Origin: a virus
Taxonomy: Duplodnaviria > Caudoviricetes
Direction: 5' to 3' (one strand)
DNA: 64,000 nucleotides
IMG/VR virus record: IMGVR_UViG_2907233695_000001
Location: 32,001-96,000 of that record
Within the stretch, counting starts at the first letter, position 1; every line of letters starts with the position of its first letter. Under the pieces are notes generated by a model. It had not been told where the DNA came from. It saw only the letters and a program-made list of their open reading frames with translations, and did no database searches. Of this stretch, positions 2,589-53,656 are shown one piece after another. The translations under genes were made by a program, and so were the position numbers.

Positions 2589-3155
2589 TTAAATAAAACT
2601 TGATATGTCATTATTTACTTCTTTCTTTTTGAATTCGACTTTTGTCTCAATCTTTTCTTGTGATTTATTTTTTTGAATTTCAGCCAACTCTTTTCTTCTC
2701 TTCTCATTGATGGCGTGATTCTTCGCATCTGCAAGATTATTTCTAACTATAGCTAATCCGTATTTTAATTCTGCTTGGAGATTCTTAAATCGAACAGTTT
2801 TTCTTGCTAGTCGAATCTTATCTTTGCAAAACTCAAGAGTGTATTCAATCCCTTCGTAAGGAATGCCATTTTTATAAGACTTCCCTAACTTTCCAAAGAG
2901 TTTAGAATCGTTTCTGATATCTTCGATATAAGGCCAGATTTGATGAGGAATCATTTGAATCGATTCTAGTTCATATATTTCCGCAATCTTTTCAGCAAGC
3001 TTATCCTTCTTATCGCGTTCTATTCTCTTGAATTCTTTATCTTTTATGTATTTCGGCAAACATTCTAAGTGTATGTATCCTTTTGGATGCTCCTTAGTCA
3101 TCTTTTCTTTTAAATCTTTTGCTTCACACCATTGGCATTTAACTTGTGCCAACAT
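2589..3155 (-). CDS. Zn-finger replication protein / helicase-loader candidate (YorH-like)
   Basis: Start reassigned to ATG 3155 (RBS GGAGGTG); CQWC...HLEC motif; directly upstream of helicase. Confidence 0.6.
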   Translation of the reverse strand: MLAQVKCQWCEAKDLKEKMTKEHPKGYIHLECLPKYIKDKEFKRIERDKKDKLAEKIAEIYELESIQMIPHQIWPYIEDIRNDSKLFGKLGKSYKNGIPYEGIEYTLEFCKDKIRLARKTVRFKNLQAELKYGLAIVRNNLADAKNHAINEKRRKELAEIQKNKSQEKIETKVEFKKKEVNNDISSFI

Positions 3156-3167
3156 CTCACCTCCCAT

Positions 3168-3213
3168 TTGCCACTCAATCAATATTCCATTATAATATAA
3201 GAACATATATTCC
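3168..3213 (+). promoter_or_regulatory. SigA promoter with LexA (Cheo) box over the start site
   Basis: TTGCCA(3168)-17-TATAAT(3191); AGAACATATATTCC at 3200-3213 resembles CGAAC-N4-GTTCG. Confidence 0.7.
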
Positions 3214-3228
3214 CGTAAAGGTGATACC

Positions 3229-3612
3229 ATGACTAACAACCACGCAACTAACGAAGAGATGGAACTAATCAAGAAGCACATTATCCTTCCCTTGATGCTG
3301 GATGTAGTGCAGAAAAACATAGAGGATTTGAGCCTCAATCAGTCTACGCTTAAACCACTTTACATTGCTTCCTGCGAAGCCGTGATGAATCTAATCCATC
3401 AGGATATGGCAGAGAATAGAAAGTTGCTTAAACAAGCTAACATAAAGATATTTGATCGAGATCAATCCAAGTATCCTTTGTTCCACTATCCATACATGGT
3501 GCGAGGATACCATTTCACGTTTCAAATGCGCAGAGAGTTAATCAAGAGTGAGATGAGCACGATGCTCCCCAAGTATGTCAATCGCGTTATCCAAATTATG
3601 AATGGGCAATGA
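3229..3612 (+). CDS. YhjD-like SOS-inducible protein
   Basis: HIILPLMLDVVQKN...LKPLY pattern recalls Bacillus YhjD; LexA-boxed promoter upstream. Confidence 0.55.
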   Translation: MTNNHATNEEMELIKKHIILPLMLDVVQKNIEDLSLNQSTLKPLYIASCEAVMNLIHQDMAENRKLLKQANIKIFDRDQSKYPLFHYPYMVRGYHFTFQMRRELIKSEMSTMLPKYVNRVIQIMNGQ

Positions 3613-3622
3613 AACCGAGATT

Positions 3623-3817
3623 TTAATGCAACTCAATCTTCTTAAATCTTGGTTTTGCACCATGTTCAGTCTCAACAAATCCGAAGAACATATCCTTTGG
3701 ACGTAGCCAAATGTTGCCACTTTCATTCTGATACACAACATATTCTTCTAGTGTTTCCGTATGTACGCCTTCACCAATGTATGTATAGATTCCACCTTTG
3801 TAATGCTGAAACTTCAT
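3623..3817 (-). CDS. DUF1653 family protein
   Basis: HYKGGIY...HTETLEEYVVY...WLRPKDMF signature. Confidence 0.85.
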   Translation of the reverse strand: MKFQHYKGGIYTYIGEGVHTETLEEYVVYQNESGNIWLRPKDMFFGFVETEHGAKPRFKKIELH

Positions 3818-3833
3818 ATTTTATCCTCCTATG

Positions 3834-3891
3834 TATAGATGATATAATCACTACCAAGATTTAACTCGGTAATGTGATTATATCATCTATA
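3834..3891. repeat. 18-bp perfect inverted repeat
   Basis: TATAGATGATATAATCAC (3834-3851) / GTGATTATATCATCTATA (3874-3891). Confidence 0.85.
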
Positions 3892-3925
3892 GTTTATTTT
3901 AAACAATACTTTTTCGTAATTTATT

Positions 3926-4438
3926 TTAACTAATTCTTAGATGCATTTTATCGGTAATGAGCTGCACACCCTCAATTTCTTTACCTGCTTTCAAATCCTC
4001 TAGGATGCTCTTATTATCGATTTTGTCAGGTTGAGGGATACGATAAGCCTCTGGGATTTTTGTCTCATCTACAACGCCAACAGATGGGTTGTTCTTTTGT
4101 AGTCTTGCAGTAAACTTACCAGCCTTAATCTTATCAATGCCATTTACCTCAAGAACACTTTGCGTATATGATTTCAGGCCATCAAACTTATTCTCCAGAT
4201 ACTTGCGCTTTTGAGCCAAACGTTTCTCTTCTTCTTTATACGCCTTAATATCCCCTTCGATATTCTTCATAAACTTGGCGATATTCTCAACCTTATTCTC
4301 CAATGCATCTTGAATGCCATCAAGAGTATCGATGAACATCTGCAAATCGTCTTCGGTCAAATCCTCTTGATCCAATGCAGCTTCAACAAATTCATTAAAT
4401 GCTCTGTACTGGTCAGCCAATGCGTAAAGTTGTGTCAT
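3926..4438 (-). CDS. Siphovirus Gp157 family protein
   Basis: LYALADQY...KVENIAKFMKN...EEKRL...KIPEAY...KIDNKSILEDLKAGKEIEG; ATG 4438 has an RBS. Confidence 0.85.
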   Translation of the reverse strand: MTQLYALADQYRAFNEFVEAALDQEDLTEDDLQMFIDTLDGIQDALENKVENIAKFMKNIEGDIKAYKEEEKRLAQKRKYLENKFDGLKSYTQSVLEVNGIDKIKAGKFTARLQKNNPSVGVVDETKIPEAYRIPQPDKIDNKSILEDLKAGKEIEGVQLITDKMHLRIS

Positions 4439-4560
4439 ATGTATACACTCTCCCATTATTTATTTAATATTATTTATGTATTTTGCATTTAATTTATGTC
4501 GTTAAAATTACAATTTCATCGTAATTTACGTATTAAAAATTCCTTATAATCATTGATTTT

Positions 4561-5406
4561 TTAAACAGCCTCGTGGTGCAATTTTTTTAATCTCTCAACG
4601 GTTTTTTCACAATATCCTCGATCCTGTTCAATACATATCCATTTTCTATTGTTTATCTCTGCTGCAACAGCCGTAGTTCCACTACCGCTTGTATTGTCAA
4701 GAACAACATCTCCTTCACTTGTATAGGTTTTAACCAGCCACTCAAATAATTCAACAGGTTTTTGAGTTGGATGTAATTTGCCACTAGAGTTATGAACACA
4801 TTTTATGTATAACATTTCATTTTCAAGTTCTAATGCATCTAATGCATAAGCGTCTTCATAATCAATTACATCATCTGGCATAAGCCAATCACTTTGACGA
4901 TCTATGTATTCTTCTCTCTGCTTACCGTAATTTGTTGTCTTAGAGTTTGTCTTATTCCCTGATTTAACTTGAAATGTTCTTGGAATCTGCTGCGGATTAT
5001 AAGTTGGAGGATTTTTATAAAATACAACAATATCCTCAAATGCACCCATCGGCATTTTCCTAGCATTGAGATTTCCTGTTTTTAAATTTTTGCGCCACAC
5101 CATACAATATTTGAATAGTTTTTGGTTACTCATTATAAGCATACTTGTAAATGGTTGTTTACCAGTTAAAACGATTGCTCCGTTATCAGCAATGATTCTC
5201 TCGTACTGTTCCCAAAGTTTGTTAAAAGGAATGACTTCATCCCATTTATTTTGAGTTGTACCGTATGGAAGGTCAGCCAAGATTAGATTAATCGATTTTT
5301 CTGGTAATTTAGACATTTCTTCAATAGTTTCACCATTTAAGAGCATACCAAATTTATTGTAATAGAAACTTTGTTTTGCCAGTTCTCCTAATTTGATAAA
5401 TATCAC
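4561..5406 (-). CDS. Orphan N6A/N4C DNA methyltransferase (beta class)
   Basis: DLPY catalytic motif, HPTQKP, LDNTSGSGTT SAM-binding motif; no restriction gene adjacent. Confidence 0.9.
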   Translation of the reverse strand: MIFIKLGELAKQSFYYNKFGMLLNGETIEEMSKLPEKSINLILADLPYGTTQNKWDEVIPFNKLWEQYERIIADNGAIVLTGKQPFTSMLIMSNQKLFKYCMVWRKNLKTGNLNARKMPMGAFEDIVVFYKNPPTYNPQQIPRTFQVKSGNKTNSKTTNYGKQREEYIDRQSDWLMPDDVIDYEDAYALDALELENEMLYIKCVHNSSGKLHPTQKPVELFEWLVKTYTSEGDVVLDNTSGSGTTAVAAEINNRKWICIEQDRGYCEKTVERLKKLHHEAV

Positions 5407-5488
5407 CTCAAAGTTATTGTTTAATTAAGATAAAATCATGTTTTCGTGGGCTTTTCTGTTTTGAAAAACCCTTATAAATGCTGAATTT

Positions 5489-5914
5489 TTAACACATGTC
5501 TACCACGGTCAAAACTTTCCTCAAGTTGTCTTTAAACTCATCTAGTGTGTAATAAAAAGCAGTATAATCATTTCCATGGTTCTCAAAATGACACACAACC
5601 CACTTGGGCAAATTTTCAAATTTGTGTTTATGTGCATGGCTCAACCAAGACATCCATGTATTATCATCGGCATTTCCTGAGTGCAACTGCTCATATAGTT
5701 CAACCTGTGTTTCATCTTCAAAATAAACTAATTTAATTTGCTTGTTGTAAGCAGGGAAGTAATCAGAGATGTCAATTTGATTGATAAGATTAAGTGTCTC
5801 GTGAACTAATGCATCTTCTTCTCTTTCGAATTCTCTTCCATCTGCTGTGACAAAAATTTCTTTCTCTTGCATCTGCTCAACTTTTACAGGAACTTGCTTC
5901 ATGATCTTTTCCAT
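5489..5914 (-). CDS. Hypothetical phage protein
   Basis: 141-aa ORF with RBS GGAGGAG. Confidence 0.7.
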   Translation of the reverse strand: MEKIMKQVPVKVEQMQEKEIFVTADGREFEREEDALVHETLNLINQIDISDYFPAYNKQIKLVYFEDETQVELYEQLHSGNADDNTWMSWLSHAHKHKFENLPKWVVCHFENHGNDYTAFYYTLDEFKDNLRKVLTVVDMC

Positions 5915-5931
5915 TCTATATTCTCCTCCTC

Positions 5932-6129
5932 TTAATCAGCCACAGCATAAGCATGTTCGCACTCAGCCGTTTCAACTCTATCCTTACACTTGCAACCATT
6001 ACCTTTCTCGCAGTCCCAATACACTCTCCTGTTCCCACAGTCGCAGCGACTATCTACCCCATCCCAACCTCTACAATCTTCACATTTATCATCACCAGCA
6101 AAATCAAACCAAACTTCATTGTTATCCAT
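5932..6129 (-). CDS. Small Cys-rich protein
   Basis: CEDCRGWDGVDSRCDCGNRRV; RBS AGGAG. Confidence 0.65.
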   Translation of the reverse strand: MDNNEVWFDFAGDDKCEDCRGWDGVDSRCDCGNRRVYWDCEKGNGCKCKDRVETAECEHAYAVAD

Positions 6130-6207
6130 TGGTTATACATTCTCCTTTGCATATGTATATAAATGTTCGCTTATGTAAATAATTTTAATGCATCGAAGAA
6201 CTTGCTT

Positions 6208-6244
6208 CCCTTCCGAAGAGTCTGCCATTGGGTGGACTCTTTTT
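6208..6244 (+). terminator. Hairpin with U-tract on + strand
   Basis: AAGAGTCTGCC-ATT-GGGTGGACTCTT followed by a T run. Confidence 0.45.
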
Positions 6245-8102
6245 CATGAGGAAATGCTGCTTTTATCAACTTTCAAGTTCATTAAGAAGATATCTAAACT
6301 CGGCTAATTTTGTACAATAAAATTCATATTTCTGTTGCGCTAACTCATATTTATGCTTATGTTCTATTCGTTCTTGATCAAAATTAGCAACACATTTTTC
6401 ATAACTATTAATATATTTTTGTAAATTGGCCTTGGTTGATTCAATGCTCATTTTAGAATCCCTTCCTTATAAATTCTTTATTGCGAATAAAAATTACTGA
6501 ACTTGTCTTCGATTGATTTAAGCTTATTCATAACAATTCGCAAGTCCTCTTCGATTTCTTCTTTAAACCTCTCAATACTACCGTCATAAAAGTATAAATC
6601 GGCAGATAAATCAGTTGCTTTACATTTGAGTCTATGGTACTCATGCAAATATTCAATGGCCTGATTTTTCATATTTCACCCTTTGAAATCCAAGTTTATT
6701 GTAAATCACTTTTGTTACAATACTCATGACAACTTTCTGCCTCTGTTAAGAAGTCGCCTATTGGTTTATTAAATTCCCCACAATAAATCATGTATATTTT
6801 TTCTTTGACATCACTACTTCTAACCTCGCACCATCCATCTGTATGAATACATCTAGTGCATGATTTTTCATTGTCCCAATTAGGGAATAACTCTTTAACT
6901 TTCGAAACCAATTCCTCCCAATCTTTTCCCACCTCGGCGCACTCCATTCGAAATACAGATTTATTTGCTTAAATACTCAGTATATCTATTTGAATTTGCA
7001 GCAAAATCATACAATACATCGACAAACTTGTCTGCGTTTTGATTGCCGCTATCGTAAGCAGCGTTCACAATTCTCCATAGATCAATCGCATCTTCTAAAG
7101 ACATTGTAAGTGTGAATTCTGGCTTAACTGGCTTCGTTGTTTCATTTAACTCCATGCATCATTCTCCCATTGAAATAAGATTTTTATTTGCCTTTTCATT
7201 CTGGTTGCATAGAAATAAAGTAATTATCTAAATCATCAATATGTTCCATTTCCTCTAAGTTACCATTGTCTTTTGCAGAATAATAACCTCGCTCCAATAA
7301 TTTACGAAGTAGATGATAATCCTTTTCGGTAATTTCAATTTGTAATGTTTTCATTTTTAACCTCCCTATGAAAGAAGAATTTTAATTTATTTTCTTTCGA
7401 TAACATTTGCGGCATATGTTTTAGGGTAAGCCCCAATTTTACCTAGAGCTTTTAAAATAATGTCCTTTTCAGTGGAATTTTCTTCAATTTCAACCTCTAC
7501 AACTTTAGATGCTTTCATGAATGGATTTGGTACATAAACACCAAAGTAAAAATAAACATCATACGTTTTTATTTTCATCATCCTCCAAATACTTCTCCAA
7601 TGCCCACTGAAGATGCTGCGACTTAGTTTGGTACTCCACTCTACTCATACGAATGTCATGGAGCACCTTCTTTATGTCCTTACCCTGTCTCATTATTTCA
7701 TTAACCATATCATCAATCTCATTTTTGTTTATGTATTCAATTACTTTGTTTATGTTTATCAACACCAGTTCTCAACTTGAAGTGTTCTTCACCTTTGACT
7801 TCCTGTTCAGTGGATCGTCTACATCTTAAGCAGCGGTTCAAATGTTCGCTTGCATATAGTTCAACTTCGTGGCCTTCAAATGCACAGTGGATACAGGTCT
7901 CTTTAGTTATGGCTTCTCAACTCCCTCAATTGCTCAAGTGCCTTCAGTTGATCTTCGAGCGAGTATTTGCCGAGGAGAGTTGCAAGCTCAGATAGAACAT
8001 CATCAAATTTTTCTTCTGGGATTGAATGAATCAGTTCTTTAAAATTCGATAATGACTCTTTCGGTTCCATGTTATCAACTCCCGTTGAAAGCATTGTTTG
8101 AT

Positions 8103-21980: not shown

Positions 21981-22001
21981 AAAAGCTGAGTTTCCTCAGC
22001 T
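21981..22001 (-). terminator. Intrinsic terminator ending the agr/LytTR region
   Basis: AGCTGAG-GAAA-CTCAGCT followed by TTT on minus strand. Confidence 0.7.
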
Positions 22002-22024
22002 CACCTCAATACTACCTACTTTTC

Positions 22025-22297
22025 CTAACTGTTATCGCCAAGTTTCGATTGTATGTAGCGCCTTGTAGTGGCCTCTAATCCCTCTGGATTGAAGTCACCA
22101 TCGTAATGGTCGATCCAGAAGATTAGATCGCTGTCAGAACAAACAGAAGAGTCAATGATTTTATATAGACCAGACTCTTTGGATAAGCCACAAACAAACT
22201 CCAGCCAAATCATAAAAAACTGTCTACCTCTATCCCAATTTTCAAGATAAAAATCATAATCAAAGTTTTGTTTATCTAATCTGGCTGCATGTGGCAT
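22025..22297 (-). CDS. Hypothetical protein, last gene after LytTR-2
   Basis: 90-aa ORF, RBS AAGGGG. Confidence 0.65.
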   Translation of the reverse strand: MPHAARLDKQNFDYDFYLENWDRGRQFFMIWLEFVCGLSKESGLYKIIDSSVCSDSDLIFWIDHYDGDFNPEGLEATTRRYIQSKLGDNS

Positions 22298-22317
22298 AAA
22301 TTTTTCCCCTTTAGTTA

Positions 22318-22800
22318 TTATATTTTTGTTGCCCTTAAATTTTTCTCATCATGTGATAGCCGTTTAATAATCGATGCTAGAATTTTTGTTATGCCCTTTT
22401 TGTTTCTGCTCTGCTGAGCAAATTCATAATCACTCTCTTTTATAGACGCACCGAATTTAATCCGTTTTAAAGTAAACTTGATATAATCCTCATGTATTCT
22501 CGCTACACTTCCGAGCAACTCTTTATTATCGTAAAAATTAACATTGCCATTCTCATCCATTGACTCAATTTGATGCAGGTTTAAGATGTTATTTCTATCA
22601 GTTTGTCTAAAATTATCAAAGAACAAAATGTCGCTCCATTGCTCAATTGTATTTGCTATTTTGTAACGGTCAGTTGCGGTGATGAAAATAACTCCCTTTT
22701 CACCTAACTCAGTTTCGATCATGATAATATCTGATTTATTTACTATTTCTAATATACTTGATCTTATGTTAAGCAAAACTAAATTATCGCCAGTCATCAT
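22318..22800 (-). CDS. LytTR DNA-binding domain protein without receiver domain (LytTR-2)
   Basis: FRQTDRNNILNLHQI matches the LytTR FxRxHRSxIVNLxxI motif. Confidence 0.75.
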   Translation of the reverse strand: MMTGDNLVLLNIRSSILEIVNKSDIIMIETELGEKGVIFITATDRYKIANTIEQWSDILFFDNFRQTDRNNILNLHQIESMDENGNVNFYDNKELLGSVARIHEDYIKFTLKRIKFGASIKESDYEFAQQSRNKKGITKILASIIKRLSHDEKNLRATKI

Positions 22801-23122
22801 TCAAATCACAACCTTTAGCGTTTGTCAATGAATTTTCACAGTCCATGAAAAGTAATTTACATACACTGTGCATTAACTTATAATCATTCTTGTAAGATAC
22901 AGCGCAACACAAGCGTTACACATACTCCTTAACATAGTGAGCTGTCGCCAAACAAATCCACTTAGTTAGGGAGTATTTTTTATTACAATCATATGTATCA
23001 CCTCTTTTAATGTTTGTAAGTTCAGTATTACATTTGTTAAATATACCACAATTTACTTCGCTTGGAACTACAGATTTTCGCATAAAAATCTGCGTTTACA
23101 ATGCCTTATTTTTATGTATATG

Positions 23123-23151
23123 TGTCGAATTTTTGTCGATTCCTTGTCGAA
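23123..23151 (+). promoter_or_regulatory. Three tandem Spo0A-box-like sites, 11-bp period
   Basis: TGTCGAA 23123, TGTCGAT 23134, TGTCGAA 23145. Confidence 0.65.
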
Positions 23152-23169
23152 TATAAAAAAGAAGCGTGT

Positions 23170-23712
23170 TCATATCAGAACATCGCTTCTTTTTTTCGGG
23201 AAACTTAACTTAGATGAATATATGCCAACTTGAGTATTGATGTCATTTTCTTTTCCGAGTGCCTTTGATATATTCCCCTTTATACAATCTCCAGAAACAG
23301 TTACATATAACTTAGTTTCATGGGTTGCATTTTCATCAAAATATACTCGCATGTAGTAACTGTCATATTTTTTGGCTAACCTCATATTTACATATTGTCT
23401 TTTATGAGTTGGTATAAAACCATATTGAGCCAAAAACCTGTCGAAGTTACCACTTCCTTTACTACAAGTCAGTCGCTCATAAACAATCGACCGAGTATAA
23501 AACATCATTATGTCTTTTGGCTGCTCTAAAAATAAAATGGTGTTTAATGGAACCCACTCTATTTCTTTTGATGATGTATTTACCAGCGGTATAGATCGCT
23601 CAGGTTCAGTGGAAATCTCATCGGCAACTTCAAGAGATAATTTATCAATTTCATCTGTTGTGATTTTTGATCCAAGTTTATCAAGGAGCAATGCTTTGAC
23701 TCTTTCAAGCAT
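23170..23712 (-). CDS. LytTR DNA-binding domain protein without receiver domain (LytTR-1)
   Basis: ILFLE...FIPTHKRQYVNMRLAKKYD...VTVS LytTR pattern. Confidence 0.8.
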   Translation of the reverse strand: MLERVKALLLDKLGSKITTDEIDKLSLEVADEISTEPERSIPLVNTSSKEIEWVPLNTILFLEQPKDIMMFYTRSIVYERLTCSKGSGNFDRFLAQYGFIPTHKRQYVNMRLAKKYDSYYMRVYFDENATHETKLYVTVSGDCIKGNISKALGKENDINTQVGIYSSKLSFPKKRSDVLI

Positions 23713-23733
23713 CTTGATTCATCCCCCTGTTAT

Positions 23734-23766
23734 GGTTGCCATAAACGGGAGTTATTTATGGCAACC
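23734..23766. repeat. 12-bp stem hairpin between agrD and LytTR-1
   Basis: GGTTGCCATAAA-N9-TTTATGGCAACC; no U-tract on minus strand. Confidence 0.75.
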
Positions 23767-23779
23767 CAATAGAGAATCA

Positions 23780-23950
23780 TTAGTTCTTTTGGGACATTTT
23801 TTCAAGCAAAGATGCTGGAGCTTTTGGCTCGTTAACAAAACCAGCAGACGATGGAGTGATAACAACATCACCAGTTGTTGGAGTTGTATCAGTATAGGCA
23901 GCATCAACAGCAGTTTTCATGATTGCTTTAGTAAGAAGTTTGTTCAACAT
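23780..23950 (-). CDS. agrD: AgrD-like cyclic lactone autoinducer precursor (56 aa, not in ORF track)
   Basis: RBS AGGAGGTG; MLNKLLTKAIMKTAVDAAYTDTTPTTGDVVITPSSAGFVNEPKAPASLLEKMSQKN; S-A-G-F-V followed by the AgrD tail xEPxxPxxL. Confidence 0.85.
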   Translation of the reverse strand: MLNKLLTKAIMKTAVDAAYTDTTPTTGDVVITPSSAGFVNEPKAPASLLEKMSQKN

Positions 23951-23992
23951 GTATTTTCACCTCCTTTAATGAAATATGCGAAAGGCAATAAT

Positions 23993-24661
23993 TTACATTC
24001 TACTAAACTCTTCCTTATTACGTTTGCTTGAGAAATATATTGTAACCATCGTTATCAAAATTAGAATAACGACGAATGCAATCAATGCTGTAGCGTTTTT
24101 TTCTGAAAAGTACATGTAACTAAACACCGCTAACTGGATCACAACAAGTACACCCAAATTAAGGAATACAATATTCTTCGTTGTTACATTTTCTTTTCCG
24201 TCTAACTCAAATCCAAAGCTCGTATTTGTGAATTTTATGTACCAACAGAAAATGTAAATGATGGTTACTGTGACAACTTGTAATGCATGTCCTTCGAATG
24301 AATCAGGTTGAATTTGTTCAAGATCGACAATGTTATACATTTTTATGATGAAGACTAAAAGTCCTTGAACACTCAGGAAAGCAGCATACCCAACTATTGA
24401 AGTAAAAAATCCATAGAGTAATTTCTGCTTGAACATCAGAATCATCATAGCTACAACTAACAAAACTTGAATCGGAATTGCGTATTGCTGCATATTAAGC
24501 AGTTCAATAATTATGTAAGAACAACCTGCCAAGAGTACCGATGATCCAACTAACTCTTTGATGTAATACTTTACGTGGAAGTGGAATATTGACATTACCA
24601 ACAATAAAATCGATGAAAACTCAAGAGATGACAATAGAATAAATAACGCCTTTTCCAACAT
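23993..24661 (-). CDS. Polytopic membrane protein resembling an AgrC sensor module without a kinase domain
   Basis: About 7 hydrophobic segments, then only ~10 residues before the stop; lies between agrB and agrD. Confidence 0.7.
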   Translation of the reverse strand: MLEKALFILLSSLEFSSILLLVMSIFHFHVKYYIKELVGSSVLLAGCSYIIIELLNMQQYAIPIQVLLVVAMMILMFKQKLLYGFFTSIVGYAAFLSVQGLLVFIIKMYNIVDLEQIQPDSFEGHALQVVTVTIIYIFCWYIKFTNTSFGFELDGKENVTTKNIVFLNLGVLVVIQLAVFSYMYFSEKNATALIAFVVILILITMVTIYFSSKRNKEEFSRM

Positions 24662-24681
24662 TAGAATAACCTTCTCTCTTT

Positions 24682-25200
24682 TTAATGGTTTCTATTTAAT
24701 TTAAATAATGTTGTTAAGGATTGAACAAAAAATGCTACTGTTATTGTTTCATAATTTATTGTCAGCAAGTTAAGCAGGACTATTAGGATAGAGATAAATT
24801 TTAGTTTCAGATATACTTTACTTTGCCAATTTGCTTTAACCTTGTATGTTAACGGTGCTCCAATGAATAGTATTACTATCGAGACTATAGACATTATAAG
24901 CGCAGTCTGTTCAGTTACTTTTATTAGAGGGATCGTTGTTAATATGATGGTTGATATCAACACACACATCTCAGATGAATTTACATGTAGGCCACCAGAA
25001 TATCGCCTTAGTAAAGCGAAGCAGAAAATTGCTAGAATAATGTCTAGAAAATGACTTCCGATGATCAATCCTATTGTTATCGTGAACGTAATAACAAATA
25101 TGTAATTTAACCATAAACTTAAGCCATATTGCAGCCACTCAACTTCTACATCCGATTCTTTATCCCACTTCTTGACTAAAACAGCCAATCCGTAGGCCAT
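24682..25200 (-). CDS. agrB: AgrB peptide-processing membrane protease
   Basis: YGL...LLRRYSGGLHVNSSEMC with catalytic His and Cys; GAP; FFVQSLT. Confidence 0.92.
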   Translation of the reverse strand: MAYGLAVLVKKWDKESDVEVEWLQYGLSLWLNYIFVITFTITIGLIIGSHFLDIILAIFCFALLRRYSGGLHVNSSEMCVLISTIILTTIPLIKVTEQTALIMSIVSIVILFIGAPLTYKVKANWQSKVYLKLKFISILIVLLNLLTINYETITVAFFVQSLTTLFKLNRNH

Positions 25201-25300
25201 ACGACTTATGATTGCAATCTCCCCCTTCTAGAAACATAGTCCCAATTATACATTATCTATTTAATCTCTTCAAGCAATTTAACTCGTCCTTACATTTATT

Positions 25301-25330
25301 AATTTACCATGTTTTACATGTATAAGTCAA
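25301..25330 (-). promoter_or_regulatory. agr operon promoter with phage operator palindrome
   Basis: TTGACT-18-TAAATT with TG; TTTACATGTATAAG at 25313-25326. Confidence 0.65.
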
Positions 25331-25392
25331 CAGTTTTTTATATATTATTTGTATATTTTATTTTATTTGAAAAATAAGAATACCCTCGTAAT

Positions 25393-26361
25393 TTAACGAG
25401 GGTACAGATTGCGAATTGTCTCCACATTTAAAAATTCTGACTTGATCCTATACATTGATTGCTCACCATCGATGCCGAATTGTTTCATAATCAAACTATA
25501 GTCTTCAGAGCTTAGTTGATCTTTCGAACCAAGTAACGAATTCGCCATTTCTAACATGCCACTATATGCAATATGCTTTGGCACAAACATCGGCTCCTGC
25601 AAATCCGCAGCAATTTTAGTAAGTCTTCGGTGAATTATATTCTTTTCGCTTTGCGAGTAGCTTTTGGTATTAGTATTAGCTGTCTTAATTACAAATTCCG
25701 TGTCGATCAGATTTGCAATATCAGCTTTGCGGTTGACGTTCGGCTCTCCGTTCATTTTTTCATAATCGAGTTCCAGAGATGCGCGGACAACTAATTTGAT
25801 ACATTGAGGGCTTACTTTAATTGTTCGTCTGTTCCCTTCGTCGTCCGTCAGAGTTAACGTCTCATTGTCTCTATCTACATCAGATGCCTTAAGATTAAGG
25901 AGCTCGCTACTTTCTTTCCCTGAGACCCCATTTCTAAGCAAACTAATTACCACTCCGTCTTGAGCGTTAACACAACTATCAATAATCTTGTCTAATTCCT
26001 CTCCAGTCCAATACTTTTTAATTTGATTATTGACAAACTGGATTGCCCAATCATTAGGGGTGAAATCAAGTGGATTCAGTCCTTTTTTTGCTCCAGAATC
26101 TAAGGCAAATGAAATATATTTGCTAATCCAGCTTATATTCTGTTTGCTGGAATACTCTGTTGTAGGCCTGAACAAATATAATAACTGTCTGATTTGCTCA
26201 ATGTTGAAATCATAAAGGTCTTTTCCTAAATCGCTCTCTTTATTAAAAGAAATCTTAAATATTCTACCCAAAGTTTTTTGTGTCCCTTTGCCATACTGAG
26301 ACATAAATTCATTTTTAAATTCTTCGTTGTATATCTGATCCCCATAAAGAATATTGGACAT
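25393..26361 (-). CDS. Degenerate integrase-fold master repressor (SPbeta YopR/MrpR/SroF-like)
   Basis: YNEEFKNEF, KDLYDF, NAQD, G-x-ELLNLK integrase fold, but catalytic R and HxxR are absent. Confidence 0.75.
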   Translation of the reverse strand: MSNILYGDQIYNEEFKNEFMSQYGKGTQKTLGRIFKISFNKESDLGKDLYDFNIEQIRQLLYLFRPTTEYSSKQNISWISKYISFALDSGAKKGLNPLDFTPNDWAIQFVNNQIKKYWTGEELDKIIDSCVNAQDGVVISLLRNGVSGKESSELLNLKASDVDRDNETLTLTDDEGNRRTIKVSPQCIKLVVRASLELDYEKMNGEPNVNRKADIANLIDTEFVIKTANTNTKSYSQSEKNIIHRRLTKIAADLQEPMFVPKHIAYSGMLEMANSLLGSKDQLSSEDYSLIMKQFGIDGEQSMYRIKSEFLNVETIRNLYPR

Positions 26362-26388: not shown

Positions 26389-27741
26389 TTAATTAATCAA
26401 ATCATCTATAGTTACATTGCCATCAGGTTCAGTTCCCTTAACTTGTTTTTCAAAAAACTTTCTAATTAAATCTTTAGTCTGATTAGAGTTTCTATTTCCT
26501 TGCTCTTTCATAATTGTTCCATACTCAGAATCCTTGCTCATATCGATTGAGTTAACTAATTGAGTAACACTCTCAACTGAAAGAGATTTATTATCATATA
26601 AATGTTTCGCTATTACACAATACCCTACAAAGGTATTATGATGATTCAACCAATCTTCTTTCGACTTTGCAAGAATGTTTGTTTTGAAGTGTTCAGGATA
26701 AGAATTGAGAAGAATCCCAAAGAATCTCTTGAGATGTTCAAATACCATTTCTTCTTCTAAGTCGTTTTTAATTTCAAAAATAGTTCCAATTGATTTAGAA
26801 AGTACATCAATGTTTGTAAGCTGCCCCAGTTTTTTATCGACTCTCGTTCTAATTGACACTTTACCTTCTAATGCAGAATCATCCATAAGTCTTTTAGCAA
26901 TATTTCTTTCTGACCCTTTTTCATTGTAATGCTTTGCCAATACCTTATCAAATGGATTGACCGTATTGAACTGCCCCAAGGCTTCCTGTGCCTTCTTGAG
27001 AGTGTAATGCTTGATTGACACGTTCATATAACCTTCTAGATTTGGATCGATTTGAAGTGCTCTAACCATACCCTGAAGTCTGTGCCAACCGTCAATAATA
27101 TCAACTTCTGTACCCTCATAAATTGTCAAATCGCCATTATCATATTCGATCTTATCGTTTCCGTTCACCAAAATGTTGAAGATGATGGTGTCAGTACTAA
27201 AATCGCCTTTTAACATTTTGTCAGCAATTGCTTCTACACTTTTCTTGACTGTCTTAGGTTTGACTGTTACTTTTCCTTTCTTTGTTGCTTTTTCAATCGG
27301 AAGTCTTTGACACTTGAAGTTGTACGTAATCATGTCTGCCAAGTACCATCCTACAATCTCTTTATATGACATGGCAGTTATGAATTCTGTCTTACCAGTT
27401 CTAATTACATTTACAATTGTATAAGGGAAAGTTGGTAATTCACTTTCGTATTCATACTTTAAGGCTTTATTTATTTCTCTAGAACTGTAAAATGACTTTG
27501 GATCAATTCTTTTATCATCTGTAATTTTGTGAACTACAATTGTAAGCAGAGTTAATTCTTCTTGTGATAACTGATCCAGTCGCTCATTGTGAATTAGAAT
27601 TTCATTAAATCTTCCTCTTGGAATATGGTGCTTCGCAAGTTCATCATCTATCTGCATTTGTTGTTCTTTTTTCTTATTTACGTCTTGTAGAACTAAACTT
27701 AATGCATCAATTAAATCTAAATTTTCAGCAACGTTACTCAT
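26389..27741 (-). CDS. DndB/ParB-like protein (SPbeta YopQ/SroE-like)
   Basis: YNFKCQR, IIDGWHRL; immediately upstream of the YopR-like gene; start moved to ATG 27741. Confidence 0.75.
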   Translation of the reverse strand: MSNVAENLDLIDALSLVLQDVNKKKEQQMQIDDELAKHHIPRGRFNEILIHNERLDQLSQEELTLLTIVVHKITDDKRIDPKSFYSSREINKALKYEYESELPTFPYTIVNVIRTGKTEFITAMSYKEIVGWYLADMITYNFKCQRLPIEKATKKGKVTVKPKTVKKSVEAIADKMLKGDFSTDTIIFNILVNGNDKIEYDNGDLTIYEGTEVDIIDGWHRLQGMVRALQIDPNLEGYMNVSIKHYTLKKAQEALGQFNTVNPFDKVLAKHYNEKGSERNIAKRLMDDSALEGKVSIRTRVDKKLGQLTNIDVLSKSIGTIFEIKNDLEEEMVFEHLKRFFGILLNSYPEHFKTNILAKSKEDWLNHHNTFVGYCVIAKHLYDNKSLSVESVTQLVNSIDMSKDSEYGTIMKEQGNRNSNQTKDLIRKFFEKQVKGTEPDGNVTIDDLIN

Positions 27742-27925
27742 CAAGACCATCCCCTCATATTTTTTATCCATTACTTTAATTATACACCAAATAAATAAAA
27801 AAATACACATAAATGAAAATTGCAGTCTACGCAATTTCATACTATGTATATTCGGAAATTATATAAATGTGTTCTATGTGATTTTGCAGAAGTTAAAATT
27901 AACAGAGTGAATCTCAATTTCAAAT

Positions 27926-29311
27926 TTAAACTTCATCTATGAAATCAACTTTATATGCCCATCTAAACCCACCTGCTGTTTTTCGTTTTCCGTTACACAC
28001 TGAAGAAATATTTTCAATTGATACTTTACATTTTTCTGAAGCAACAGTCGCACTTATATATTCACAGATAAATTGACCATTCAATGTCAACTGAACAATA
28101 GGTTTTCTCGTTTTTACACCTGCTTTAGCACTTCCATTTCTCGATTCTTTTGTTGGATCATACGCACACCAACCTAATTCCAACCCAATCTTAAGATATT
28201 TAATTATCGTAGGTTTAGATATTTTCATTATTTCAGAAATTTCATTAGCGGTAATATTGTCGTTATTGAAGTATTCACAAGCTATTTTTATCATTGATTT
28301 TAAACTTAGTTCGTGGCACGAATCCCAGTTTATTCTACTCAAATTAATAATTGTTGCCAATTCACTATTTAGAATACTGCCTTTTATATAATTCAACTCT
28401 GACTTGCTACAATTAATCACTATATAATACCTTATATTATGACGTAAGGCCATATCTCGTTTAAAACAGTCATTCATTTTTTCCTCATCTAATGTTCTTT
28501 TGCCTAATGTGTTTTCCTCATAATGCTGTCTCCCGTGAGTTTCAATGATACAGTTTAAGGATGGGATATAAAAATCAAAACTCTTTTTTTCTGACCACTC
28601 AAAAGATTTTTGATATTCAAAATCAATACCTGCTTGAAATAGTAGATTGTACATAAGCCTTTCTGGGTAAGGAATTGTATTAGAACATTTGGGGCAAGAA
28701 ACACCGTACAAGCTAACAGAACTTATTCTTTTATTCTTTATTTTACTTAAACAATCAGGACATTTAAAATCAACATGTTTTTTGCTCATGATTGTATACC
28801 GATATCCATCTTCATGATTCCAAAGTAGGGTGCCTAAAATTGGATCGACAGTATGAATATCATTAATCCCCTTTACAATCTTTCTTGGGGCAATACAACA
28901 TGCATTACAACCTGCTCCGCGAGATATAGCTGCCTCTCTTATTTTGTCTTCATTTCCGCAATTTAGACACTTATAAAAATAAATCTTAGCCTTCTTATTG
29001 TCTTTATATTTTCCCGTTATCTCTAGTTTCCCAGAATTAACGTTGTCGATAATACTTCCAATCTCGTGAAAATGATCAGAGGTTATTTTCCCCAATAAGC
29101 ACCCTAGCTTGCAACTCGTAAATCCGCTTATATACATCGAATGAATTCGATTTTTATATTTTAGCTTTATGTAGTAATTCTCATTATACTCCAGTATCTC
29201 AACAAACCCAGACATTCCTTCATAAATAAAACCAACGCTCAACCCTACACATCGTTTCCAGTCAACATACTTTCCCTTTTTCGGAAGGTCATCTAAAAAT
29301 ACTTTATTCAA
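27926..29311 (-). CDS. Homing-endonuclease-like protein (Zn ribbons, PD-(D/E)xK-like core, NUMOD1)
   Basis: Several CxxC; FDFYIP...IETHGRQHY; C-terminal ISSVCNGKRKTAGGFRW. Confidence 0.75.
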   Translation of the reverse strand: MNKVFLDDLPKKGKYVDWKRCVGLSVGFIYEGMSGFVEILEYNENYYIKLKYKNRIHSMYISGFTSCKLGCLLGKITSDHFHEIGSIIDNVNSGKLEITGKYKDNKKAKIYFYKCLNCGNEDKIREAAISRGAGCNACCIAPRKIVKGINDIHTVDPILGTLLWNHEDGYRYTIMSKKHVDFKCPDCLSKIKNKRISSVSLYGVSCPKCSNTIPYPERLMYNLLFQAGIDFEYQKSFEWSEKKSFDFYIPSLNCIIETHGRQHYEENTLGKRTLDEEKMNDCFKRDMALRHNIRYYIVINCSKSELNYIKGSILNSELATIINLSRINWDSCHELSLKSMIKIACEYFNNDNITANEISEIMKISKPTIIKYLKIGLELGWCAYDPTKESRNGSAKAGVKTRKPIVQLTLNGQFICEYISATVASEKCKVSIENISSVCNGKRKTAGGFRWAYKVDFIDEV

Positions 29312-30251: not shown

Positions 30252-31685
30252 CTAAACTACACTTAATTTCTTGTCCATCATTTCAAGTCTACCAACCTCT
30301 ACATCATGCAACCTCAAAAAGTTGTCCCAAGTTTCAATACATTTTTCTCTATTAACTTCATTTAATTTACTATTCACATTCATAATCAAAAAAGCACTAT
30401 ATAAATCACGTTGCACTAAATTATTTCCAATCTTCTTCCATCTTTCTTCTATAGTAGATTTTTTGTATGTGTCATCAATGTGACTGTACTGACTTGCTCT
30501 TGTCGATCTTGTGTCAATTTCGTTTAAAAGCAATCCATAATAACTCAATTTATTTTTTAGTATATTAATAAACATTGAAGGCGCTTTATTACTTATTGAT
30601 TTACCATATCTCTTTTTGCTCTTGAATTTTCCATGTTTATTCTTCTCTGTTTCTTTGGATCGTCTACTCAATCCAGCATAAGATATTGGCTCTATATAAA
30701 ATTCATTTCCAAGTGATACAATTTCGTTAGCAAGAACATTATGATCCATTTTTCTTATGCTTGCTAATTTGCGTTGTAATTCTGCCAGTGCGTTTTTCGT
30801 TTTAATATAACTCTTACTTAAAATCCATTTGTCTTTATTTCCTTTTTTAATTGTCCCGTCTTCATTGAATTTATGAGGATTATTCGCCCTACATTGACGA
30901 TCTAATTTGCGTTGCAATCTACGTTTTTCTTTATCAATACTGTTGATACTTGGTGCAAGCTCATATATTTTAGCAGAAGTTTCACACGACACAGCCATAA
31001 TCTGTAATGATGTATCAATCCCAACTTTACCTTCGCCAAATTTATGTTTAAACATTCCAGTTTCATTGTCAATCTTTTTTGGAGGGATGCCTTCAAGTAC
31101 AAGTTGAATATAATACCTAGTTTCACCTCTAATCAATTTGCGAACAATACGACAATATTTAATTTTTCTTGTTAATGCTTCATATGCATAATCGTCATTC
31201 TTCTTAAGAAGGACTGGAATTTTTAATTTATTCCATTCAAGATGCTCGTTACGATACTTAATACCTTGTCTATTACTTGCACCTTCAATTGAGTCCATTT
31301 CGCCAACTCGTTTAATATATACCCTCTTGGCTCTGCCGATCATTATTTTAAACGTTGCAGCAAAAGCTCTTTGTGCTAATTTCTGAGTTGTACTTGAATC
31401 AATGCCGTTAAATTCATTCACACGCAAAGGAGTTGAAAACATGATCATGTCATTTTTAGTAAATTTAAATTCAGTTTGAATTCGTGCGTATGCCTTAGAC
31501 TGTTCTTTTTTTGGCAGATTTTTAATATTTCGATATTGTCTTGATTGTCGCATTAGATTGAGCCGTTTTAGCGACTCTTTTAGTAAGGCATTGTAAAGTT
31601 TGCGAGACAACTCAAAGTATTTCTCTAACGCATGATTGTCAGAAATTGATGAATTTAAAGGTAATTCTAAAATAAATGTTGACAA
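30252..31685 (-). CDS. tnpB: TnpB RNA-guided nuclease (IS200/IS605/IS607 family), no adjacent TnpA
   Basis: RuvC I VGID, RuvC II YIE, RuvC III QRDLYSA; RYYIQLVLEG. Confidence 0.9.
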   Translation of the reverse strand: MSTFILELPLNSSISDNHALEKYFELSRKLYNALLKESLKRLNLMRQSRQYRNIKNLPKKEQSKAYARIQTEFKFTKNDMIMFSTPLRVNEFNGIDSSTTQKLAQRAFAATFKIMIGRAKRVYIKRVGEMDSIEGASNRQGIKYRNEHLEWNKLKIPVLLKKNDDYAYEALTRKIKYCRIVRKLIRGETRYYIQLVLEGIPPKKIDNETGMFKHKFGEGKVGIDTSLQIMAVSCETSAKIYELAPSINSIDKEKRRLQRKLDRQCRANNPHKFNEDGTIKKGNKDKWILSKSYIKTKNALAELQRKLASIRKMDHNVLANEIVSLGNEFYIEPISYAGLSRRSKETEKNKHGKFKSKKRYGKSISNKAPSMFINILKNKLSYYGLLLNEIDTRSTRASQYSHIDDTYKKSTIEERWKKIGNNLVQRDLYSAFLIMNVNSKLNEVNREKCIETWDNFLRLHDVEVGRLEMMDKKLSVV

Positions 31686-32517: not shown

Positions 32518-32733
32518 TCAGTACTTCTCACCATTATCATTCAATATCTCTACAACCTGTTCAATCGGAACCTTGAGAATTGAGCAAAGTCTGTCGATGG
32601 TTTCCAACGTAATCGACTCACCCTTTCTGATCTTAGCAAGTGTCCTCGATGAGAAACCATGAGATTCAATCAACTCTTTAAATGTCATTTCTTGTTCCTC
32701 TAGAGTTTTCAATAATGGACTAAAATTAATCAT
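32518..32733 (-). CDS. Cro/C1-type HTH regulator
   Basis: TLAKIRKGESITLETIDRLCSIL. Confidence 0.9.
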   Translation of the reverse strand: MINFSPLLKTLEEQEMTFKELIESHGFSSRTLAKIRKGESITLETIDRLCSILKVPIEQVVEILNDNGEKY

Positions 32734-32771: not shown

Positions 32772-32800
32772 AATATAACATGTTTACATGTGTAAATCAA
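32772..32800 (-). promoter_or_regulatory. SigA promoter with operator palindrome
   Basis: TTGATT-17-TATATT; TTTACATGTGTAAA 32783-32796. Confidence 0.7.
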
Positions 32801-40547: not shown

Positions 40548-40576
40548 ATATTAGCACGTTTACATATATAAATCAA
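40548..40576 (-). promoter_or_regulatory. SigA promoter with operator palindrome
   Basis: TTGATT-17-TAATAT; TTTACATATATAAA 40559-40572. Confidence 0.7.
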
Positions 40577-42430: not shown

Positions 42431-42459
42431 ATTATAACCCATATATTTATATATGTAAA
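42431..42459 (-). promoter_or_regulatory. SigA promoter with operator palindrome
   Basis: TTTACA-17-TATAAT; TTTATATATGTAAA 42446-42459. Confidence 0.7.
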
Positions 42460-49395: not shown

Positions 49396-49424
49396 ATTAT
49401 AAGGCTTTACATATATAAAGTCAA
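49396..49424 (-). promoter_or_regulatory. SigA promoter with operator palindrome
   Basis: TTGACT-17-TATAAT; TTTACATATATAAA 49406-49419. Confidence 0.8.
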
Positions 49425-53627: not shown

Positions 53628-53656
53628 ATTATACCAAGTTTATATATGTAAATCAA
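53628..53656 (-). promoter_or_regulatory. SigA promoter with operator palindrome
   Basis: TTGATT-17-TATAAT with TG; TTTATATATGTAAA 53639-53652. Confidence 0.75.

Follow-up and report, generated by a model that had tools for sequence, protein, structure and literature searches.

A putative kinase-less agr-type signalling cassette beside the master repressor genes of an SPbeta-like Paenibacillus phage

Genes of the locus

The window analysed here, a 64,000-nucleotide stretch of phage DNA (positions 32,001 to 96,000 of IMG/VR record IMGVR_UViG_2907233695_000001, contig C13, 164,118 bp), carries at positions 22025 to 25330 a set of genes, every one on the minus strand, that resembles a bacterial agr signalling locus (Table 1). 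A preliminary description, made from the DNA letters alone, had read it as a hybrid of agr and LytTR regulatory systems (LRS): a promoter carrying the phage operator palindrome, agrB with catalytic His and Cys, a protein of about seven transmembrane (TM) helices without a histidine-kinase domain, an unannotated 56-aa agrD, a hairpin and two LytTR genes, neither with a receiver domain and the second preceded by a structured leader. The locus was placed directly downstream of yopQ/yopR-like repressor genes, in a window from which the arbitrium system is absent. The analysis confirmed the observation, which goes far beyond what chance would produce; most elements of the description stood, the operator palindrome and the leader in part (see below).

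AgrB is the membrane peptidase of agr systems with its catalytic His and Cys: besides the Pfam match, 15 aligned AgrB proteins, staphylococcal-type ones included, show no variation at R65, H72, C79, P116 and K134. The catalytic His and Cys of S. aureus AgrB, said to have been described by Qiu and colleagues in 2005, reportedly have the same seven-residue spacing as H72 and C79. All related loci have a small open reading frame (ORF) like agrD in the same position, terminating in five putative ring residues followed by [HNF][ERK]PxxP. Cys or Ser begins five residues ahead of this motif in the window phage (SAGFV, then NEPKAP) and in the relatives G098 (STWFV, HRPEAP), G032 (SVFWI, NKPVAP), G051 (CVSIF, HEPEMP), G132 (CVGLV, HEPELP) and G093 (CFGIW, FEPEAP); the ring residues are hypervariable between relatives. 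Five-residue C-terminal rings, with Cys at times replaced by Ser, are the rule for such peptides, that of Listeria being cyclo-CFMFV (PMC4916163), and a Paenibacillus agrBD by itself yields active cyclic peptides in B. subtilis (PMC12180512). Because these precedents agree with the conserved AgrD pattern, the Ser lactone cyclo(SAGFV) is a reasonable prediction for the signal.

The gene between agrB and agrD encodes a protein with seven hydrophobic peaks and an N-out/C-in topology (10 Lys/Arg residues inside versus 1 outside), which stops 12 residues past TM7 and contains no kinase. It matches over its full length the profile of phrog_15604, a family of ~220-aa 7-TM proteins. An exhaustive profile search returned 805 cluster representatives at E ≤ 0.001; as the best 150 of these all measure 177–293 aa and match at full length, the family appears to consist of stand-alone proteins of ~220 aa. 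Its neighbours in the ESM Atlas are unnamed Bacillota proteins. The AlphaFold2 (AF2) model (22-sequence alignment; mean predicted local distance difference test [pLDDT] 91) consists of seven helices. When it was compared with the PDB by Foldseek, the best E value was 0.3 (G protein-coupled receptors and rhodopsins, TM-score 0.2); the wide VIA-align search gave helical-hairpin matches only (Z up to 8.8), and a sequence profile search of the PDB gave no match. There is thus no solved counterpart, which is not evidence for a new fold.

For comparison, histidine kinases encoded beside agrB were gathered from 300 Bacilli genomes. The profile of the 7-TM family matched the N-terminal sensors of those encoded just upstream of agrB (hhalign 97.9%, E 4.6e-13) over 214 columns, that is, across all seven helices, while control alignments (reversed ones and that of AgrB) reached 0.6%. 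Staphylococcal AgrC was rejected as the closest sensor relative, its match being only 71% across 30 columns. Moreover, the TM gene of bacterial host-type loci stands where kinase-type operons hold the kinase gene, giving the order TM-AgrB-AgrD-LytTR. Judged by profile homology, the 7-TM protein is genuinely related by descent to the AgrC-type sensor module but lacks the dimerization and histidine phosphotransfer (DHp) and ATPase domains. A second member of the family (225 aa) is encoded on the same contig outside the window (C13:10965-11642, plus strand), on the strand opposite to that of its neighbours and with no adjoining agrB, agrD or LytTR gene. This orphan groups on a long branch with host-type receptors in the tree and may be an eavesdropping receptor.

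Alternatively, the 7-TM protein could be an accessory of biogenesis, export or immunity, such as a second-step protease or an export partner of AgrB, with the LytTR proteins sensing something else. Maturation of the S. aureus autoinducing peptide reportedly requires a second membrane protein, MroQ (10.1101/2021.12.29.473670); the phage encodes no CAAX/MroQ-like protease, whereas a related locus of its host does, and the want of a similar solved structure would also suit such a role. However, the full-length homology points to the sensor modules of kinases and to neither CAAX proteases nor transporters; no Pfam family was matched, and hence none of proteases or transporters; the gene takes the position of the kinase gene in host-type loci; and lyt1 belongs to the same swapped cassette (see below). 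An accessory role is therefore regarded as improbable.

Lyt1 matched no Pfam family. In its AF2 model (pLDDT 80), two N-terminal helices precede a beta domain, whose best Foldseek match in the PDB was the LytTR domain of AgrA (4xqj; E 5.5e-6, probability 1.0, TM-score 0.73), with ComE and 3d6w among the other leading matches; by its model, Lyt1 folds as a LytTR domain. Its gene invariably comes after agrD in phage-type loci. Lyt2, recognized by Pfam, is encoded beyond a 369-bp gap and has homologues in G129, G132, G123 and G098. Neither protein contains a receiver (REC) domain according to Pfam, and both are too short for one; they are LytTR proteins only, not the REC-LytTR combination of AgrA. 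The last gene, orf90, has no Pfam, PHROG or atlas relative, and homologues come after lyt1 or lyt2 in G129, G032 and G098.

Of the sensor, DHp and HATPase domains that make up AgrC, only the sensor module is present, and no match to PF02518 (HATPase_c) or PF14501 (HATPase_c_5) was found on the phage contig. The absence of arbitrium could be extended from the window to the whole 164-kb contig: neither the SPbeta AimR protein nor Pfam PF22871 found AimR, the tetratricopeptide repeat (TPR) receptor encoded adjacent to AimP, whereas the same Pfam model scored above its cut-off in B. subtilis, which served as the control.

Table 1. Features of the phage locus (window coordinates) and genes of the related host locus L089 (locus coordinates).
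Feature	Position	Strand	Description
yopQ-like gene	26389..27840	-	DndB/DGQHR fold; Pfam DndB 54 bits; first of repressor pair
yopR/mrpR-like master repressor gene	25393..26361	-	Pfam MrpR_N_CB 93 bits, MrpR_C_cat 66 bits
Intrinsic terminator 3' of yopR	25380..25405	-	10-bp stem and T-run
P_agr	25301..25330	-	sigma-70-like (sigma-A) promoter, TTGACT-18-TG-n-TAAATT; spacer palindrome CATGTAAAACATG at 25308-25320
Second promoter-like site	25245..25273	-	sigma-70-like; between P_agr and agrB
agrB	24682..25200	-	AgrD-processing cysteine peptidase; Pfam AgrB 63 bits (cut-off 23); phrog_10353 E 8e-29
7-TM receptor candidate	23993..24661	-	222 aa; phrog_15604 E 5.6e-17 over residues 5-215
agrD	23780..23950	-	propeptide, 56 aa; strong Shine-Dalgarno sequence AAAGGAGGTG; predicted ring S-A-G-F-V, then NEPKAP
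Stem-loop between agrD and lyt1	23734..23766	-	perfect 12-bp stem
lyt1	23170..23712	-	180 aa; two N-terminal helices and LytTR domain; no receiver
Terminator-like hairpin over lyt1 stop	23155..23195	-	12-bp inverted repeat, then T-run
Three TTCGACA direct repeats	23123..23151	-	period 11-12 bp; candidate Lyt1 operator/output promoter
Conserved stem-loop in lyt1-lyt2 leader	22922..22976	-	conserved apical loop UUUGUUUGGCGACAG
lyt2	22318..22800	-	160 aa; Pfam LytTR 36 bits, residues 19-100
orf90	22025..22297	-	small acidic protein; final gene of unit
Intrinsic terminator closing unit	21983..22002	-	8-bp stem and T-run
Host protease gene	2946-3536	-	Rce1/CAAX-type, MroQ-like
Host TM sensor gene	3751-4476
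Host agrB	4439-5002
Host agrD	~5000-5120		40 aa
Host LytTR-GGDEF-EAL gene	5184-6992

Cassette exchange and putative regulatory sites

The order yopQ-yopR-agrB-TM-agrD-lyt1 is kept in low-GC prophage DNA of nine Paenibacillaceae genomes (G000, G098, G093, G032, G129, G132, G051, G081 and G084), often followed by homologues of lyt2 and/or orf90. In the host's family, 69 of 136 genomes contain the TM family and 21 of 136 contain MrpR homologues. Mean identity across the nine phages is 28–32% for the proteins of the module and 45% for YopR, and the phage-type receptors cluster in a tree with those of other loci of AgrB-TM order, apart from most host-type ones. Among 50,697 phage records, megablast with the locus and tblastn with the window AgrB gave no match, and single-protein queries for related loci among viral contigs returned no relatives; a word-index homologue search with the TM protein and Lyt1 found only the queries themselves, the index being too insensitive at ~30% identity. 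In G082, yopQ-yopR is followed directly by a 66-aa gene instead of the cassette, and a homologue of this gene comes after the cassette in G084 and G081. The 66–69-aa gene of these three genomes has its own promoter between GAAC-N4-5-GTTC palindromes (L026:9700-9790, L085:7250-7310), which look like a separate operator.

G084 and G081 share 96% identity in YopQ and YopR, versus 34% in AgrB, 28% in the TM protein and 36% in Lyt1. At the nucleotide level, identity amounts to 92.8% along yopQ, yopR and the promoter and ends ~100 nt ahead of agrB; no similarity is detectable across agrB-TM-agrD-lyt1, and it returns (82.5%) 2 nt past the lyt1 stop codon. As similarity drops exactly there, agrB-TM-agrD-lyt1 is one replaceable unit with conserved flanks, and its replacement looks like a bounded, pherotype-like exchange. 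A signal, receptor and transducer that have to match one another would be expected to be exchanged in this way. Because Lyt1 lies inside the swapped cassette, it would have to match its receptor, which implies direct contact between the two; this is the best available argument for such contact.

Immediately behind the cassette lies a cluster of TTCGACA repeats that is unique within the 164-kb contig. Two such repeats are found at the same place, just after lyt1, in G129, G132, G084, G081 and G093, and degenerate copies in G051, G032 and G123; they were not found in the cassette-free G082. Since the repeats of the G084/G081 pair lie within the conserved flank, divergent Lyt1 proteins would read one common site, and we infer from this arrangement that the repeats are a candidate Lyt1 operator. 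The hairpin described between agrD and lyt1 also recurs: in all of the 10 related loci compared, agrD is followed by a strong hairpin, although the sequences are unrelated. It may determine how much agrB-TM-agrD is expressed relative to lyt1.

In principle, a decayed agrBDCA operon that had lost kinase, receiver and signalling would likewise lack kinase and receiver domains, and the AgrD-like peptides of some relatives do lack a ring nucleophile. All reading frames are intact, however, the kinase-less receptor family comprises 805 representatives of uniform size, and synteny, the agrD hairpin and the downstream repeats are kept across loci whose proteins are only ~30% identical. Such a remnant is therefore very improbable.

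The structured leader reported ahead of lyt2 held up as a single conserved stem-loop. Structure was not significant for the 381-nt leader as a whole (z −1.67), and an Rfam scan of the locus, leader included, gave no match. The stem-loop scores z −3.0 in the window phage and −3.9 and −4.1 in G129 and G123, with compensatory changes at 10 of 21 pairs, albeit from three sequences only. A mini-ORF, MIVIKNTP (22966-22992, minus strand), has a strong Shine-Dalgarno sequence and extends into the 5' arm of this stem-loop; in G129, G132 and G084, mini-ORFs of 4–12 codons with strong Shine-Dalgarno sequences occupy similar positions, and the element may be a leader-peptide attenuator.

The position directly downstream of the repressor genes was borne out by the Pfam matches of both (Table 1). 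The counterparts of the yopQ-like gene in the relatives match SPbeta YopQ (phmmer), and the yopR/mrpR-like repressor, which has an inactive tyrosine-recombinase fold, is 30–35% identical to proteins of large Bacillus siphophages. Just upstream of yopQ, where SPbeta carries yopM-P and arbitrium, a gene for an HNH/NUMOD homing endonuclease and one for an insertion sequence (IS)-type transposase were found (27926-29311 and 30252-31685, both minus strand).

As for the promoter ahead of agrB, which was said to carry the phage operator palindrome, both the promoter and the palindrome CATGTAAAACATG are present. A TTGACT...TGATATATT layout likewise precedes agrB in the relatives. The palindrome has no further copy in the phage contig, even at up to 3 mismatches, and is not kept in the agrB promoters of relatives, so that its reading as a general, multi-copy phage operator was rejected. 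In this it differs from SPBRE, the MrpR site of SPbeta, which is a multi-copy element (PMC10516654). A palindrome closely resembling it, ACATGTAAACATGT (32778-32791), occupies the spacer of a TTGATT-17-TATATT promoter, which belongs to a gene for a 71-aa Cro/CI-type helix-turn-helix (HTH) protein (32518-32733, minus strand). Given this close likeness to a palindrome in the HTH gene's own promoter, that of P_agr may be an operator for this protein. A different motif, TTTACATATATAAA, occurs in four to five copies (40559-40572, 42444-42457 on the minus strand, 49406-49419, 53637-53650 on the minus strand, and also C13:12030) and, at least twice, makes up the −35 element and spacer of a TTTACA-N17-TATAAT promoter. 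By analogy with SPBRE, the MrpR-like repressor may use this motif as a multi-copy operator; the agrB promoter does not contain it.

Phage, host and proposed pathway

The contig encodes the large terminase (TerL), a portal protein, a 2143-aa tape measure, a minor tail protein, a 1104-aa DNA polymerase, an FtsK-like protein and, at its extreme end, a large serine integrase, and is on these grounds assigned to a temperate SPbeta/Tsamsa-like siphophage. With the YopQ and MrpR/YopR pair on such a large siphophage, the lysogeny module is SPbeta-like. The assembly contains no host flank on this contig, whose GC content is ~35% throughout as against 50.7% in the surrounding 7.56-Mb genome. Foreign contamination was rejected as the source of the low-GC contig: related prophages of 32–34% GC are integrated in large Paenibacillaceae contigs, one of them in a 9.6-Mb chromosome, and low GC is therefore taken as a trait of the phage lineage. 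Going by the best relative of a chromosomal protein (82% identity, in Paenibacillus allorhizosphaerae), the host is a Paenibacillus.

The host chromosome has a kinase-less agr locus of its own (L089; G000:C93:36500-44500; Table 1). Its final gene encodes a 602-aa fusion of LytTR with GGDEF and EAL domains, and from this domain composition the locus apparently couples a cyclic-peptide signal directly to cyclic di-GMP (c-di-GMP) turnover. P. allorhizosphaerae has a copy with 82% identity. As this paralogous system fuses LytTR to GGDEF-EAL, LytTR itself is suggested to be a receptor-coupled input domain.

We consider it probable that the phage locus is a self-contained agr-type peptide signalling cassette that works without phosphotransfer and informs the lysis-lysogeny or induction decision. 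The agr/LRS hybrid of the preliminary description gains support from the sensor homology, the receiver-less LytTR proteins, the absence of AimR, the synteny and the bounded cassette exchange. According to the proposed pathway, P_agr would transcribe agrB, the TM gene, agrD and lyt1. AgrB, by means of H72 and C79, would cut AgrD after Val and close the five-residue ring, most likely the predicted Ser lactone; a host protease would trim the AgrD leader, and the peptide would be released. The 7-TM sensor would then bind the extracellular peptide and, given that there is neither kinase nor receiver domain, pass the signal to Lyt1 by direct protein contact. A conserved cytoplasmic loop of the receptor (N-x-G-F-x-F) and its KRxKEE tail could hold or release Lyt1, as the membrane inhibitors of streptococcal LRS do. 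Free Lyt1 would act at the TTCGACA repeats and control lyt2-orf90 or, in relatives, other small early genes. In this way, the cassette would report phage or lysogen density, a role proposed because it is wired between the MrpR operon and early genes of a phage without arbitrium.

Several points weigh against this interpretation. AgrD reaches only 14.2 bits (E 0.037) against TIGR04223, below the cut-off of 19. The AgrD-like peptides of G129 (PVGIW), G084 (KVAFW) and G081 (KVNIWF) have no Cys or Ser at the expected ring position; they may be cyclized by another chemistry, act as linear signals or represent non-producing 'listener' alleles. The contact between receptor and Lyt1 is one that we infer. 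About half of the MrpR-bearing prophages are without the cassette, so that the switch itself can do without it. Upstream of agrB there are no TTCGACA repeats, and the autoinduction typical of agr is accordingly not evident; nor was a relative found near enough to the window phage to reveal the boundary of its own cassette. Finally, PHROGs files the TM protein under 'moron', and the cassettes of Brevibacillus and Paenibacillus larvae phages (see below) lie near the integrase among moron-like genes.

The last two points are shared with the main rival, namely that the module serves lysogenic conversion: as an extra quorum channel, or by interfering with a kinase-less agr system of the host such as that on C93, it would alter biofilm, motility or kin discrimination and not the phage life cycle. 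The paralogous TM-AgrB-AgrD-LytTR::GGDEF-EAL locus of the host, the spread of TM-family systems through half of the family's genomes (69 of 136), the toxin-like morons beside the cassette in the cultured phages, and the grouping of the orphan TM paralogue with host-type receptors all fit this role. Yet the phage supplies its own regulator along with conserved target repeats in its own genome, in nine genomes the insertion point of the cassette is precisely between the master-repressor operon and early genes, and the phage receptor is just 19% identical to that of the host, with differing peptides as well. Lysogenic conversion is thus held to be unlikely, though less so than the accessory role discussed above.

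To our knowledge, arbitrium is so far the only characterized peptide system with which temperate phages gauge one another's numbers. More tentatively, and with somewhat less than even confidence, it is proposed that SPbeta-like phages of Paenibacillaceae possess a second, evolutionarily independent means of phage-phage communication, in which a kinase-less AgrC sensor detects a cyclic agr-type peptide at the membrane and directly gates a LytTR protein, thereby setting lysis-lysogeny or induction, and in which whole agrB-receptor-agrD-lyt1 cassettes are swapped as pherotypes among repressor backbones that are otherwise almost identical, the same kinase-less logic being used by host systems, one of them wired to c-di-GMP turnover. 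If the cassette does the job of arbitrium, phage communication would have two or more origins, which differ in their chemistry (here, extracellular sensing of a cyclic peptide) and in their transduction (here, neither import nor phosphorylation), and the cassette would offer a clean, small model for kinase-free signalling by a 7-TM peptide sensor. How such a sensor works is a question that extends to ~800 uncharacterized clusters of bacterial homologues and to LRS without known signals. The precisely bounded, swappable cassette amounts to a natural specificity experiment, and the cultured phages Davies and Harrison bear related modules.

Comparison with known systems

Cassettes of this kind were partly anticipated in 2014 but never characterized. 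Hargreaves et al. (2014) noted AgrB, a putative AgrD and membrane proteins without HATPase in the Brevibacillus phages Davies, Emery and Abouo (PMC3901668); other phage genome papers mention AgrB in tables only. Literature searches turned up no work on a kinase-less agr pathway or on an agr cassette adjoining MrpR, and a paper on LRS mentions neither agr nor phages (PMC6193735). In Davies, gp45 belongs to the TM family (hhalign 99%), gp46 is AgrB, gp47 is AgrD-like and gp48 a weak LytTR match, all placed between the integrase and a CI-like repressor; the P. larvae phages Harrison and Paisley have the order TM-AgrB-42 aa-118 aa, the last gene being annotated 'peptidase'. Harrison gp41 (L088:4148-4504, 'peptidase') and Davies gp48 (L080:28293-28658, 'hypothetical') look like small receiver-less LytTR proteins: Lyt2 is matched by phrog_15081, and the Pfam LytTR score of Davies gp48 is 16.9 bits. 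The existing annotation is likely to be in error. Like the cassette described here, those of Davies, Emery, Abouo, Harrison and Paisley, temperate phages of the same bacterial order, comprise AgrB, a short AgrD-like ORF and a ~220-aa TM protein without HATPase, next to a small receiver-less LytTR gene. They differ in their host-type gene order (TM-AgrB-AgrD-LytTR instead of AgrB-TM-AgrD-Lyt1(-Lyt2)), in their place in the integrase/CI region of 45–58-kb phages rather than after MrpR/YopR in a 164-kb SPbeta-like phage, and in that their LytTR protein is without the N-terminal helical extension of Lyt1; the TTCGACA repeats were not found in Davies. These cassettes were earlier uncharacterized, and neither the link to LytTR nor the sensor homology has been reported previously.

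With agrBDCA of S. aureus, the cassette shares the His/Cys-type AgrB, a sensor with several membrane spans, output through LytTR and hypervariability of the signal/receptor region; a five-residue ring and a C-terminal recognition tail are predicted for its putative AgrD as well. Unlike S. aureus agr, it has no histidine kinase, receiver or phosphotransfer, its transducer (Lyt1) lies inside the variable cassette instead of being conserved, and the ring is predicted to be a Ser lactone in place of a thiolactone. The agr3 locus of the C. difficile phage phiCDHM1 likewise brings agr signal-synthesis genes and a sensor into a phage; there, however, agrC-agrB-agrD includes a complete kinase and comes without its own regulator (Hargreaves et al., 2014; PMC3901668), whereas the present cassette lacks a kinase and brings two regulators.

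HdrRM and BrsRM of S. mutans also encode a receiver-less LytTR protein with a membrane protein (PMC6193735), and in the phage, lyt1 and the TM gene are inherited together as parts of one cassette. In those systems, the membrane protein controls the LytTR protein without phosphotransfer and direct repeats form the operator, both of which are predictions here. They are two-gene operons with the regulator first, autoregulated via direct repeats upstream of the operon, whereas the phage order is agrB-TM-agrD-lyt1 with repeats downstream of lyt1; they have neither a known signal peptide nor AgrB, and their membrane inhibitors are not homologues of AgrC sensors as far as tested.

Arbitrium (AimR-AimP-AimX), finally, resembles the cassette in that a secreted peptide and its receptor are encoded by the phage beside the yopM-R/MrpR repression module, with signal specificity diversified among related phages; in SPbeta, MrpR itself binds the aimR promoter (PMC10516654). 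The two share no homology, and their places differ, arbitrium being upstream of yopM and the cassette downstream of yopR. The arbitrium signal is a linear hexapeptide, which the cell takes up and a TPR regulator in the cytoplasm binds, whereas the cyclic peptide of the cassette would be sensed at the membrane.

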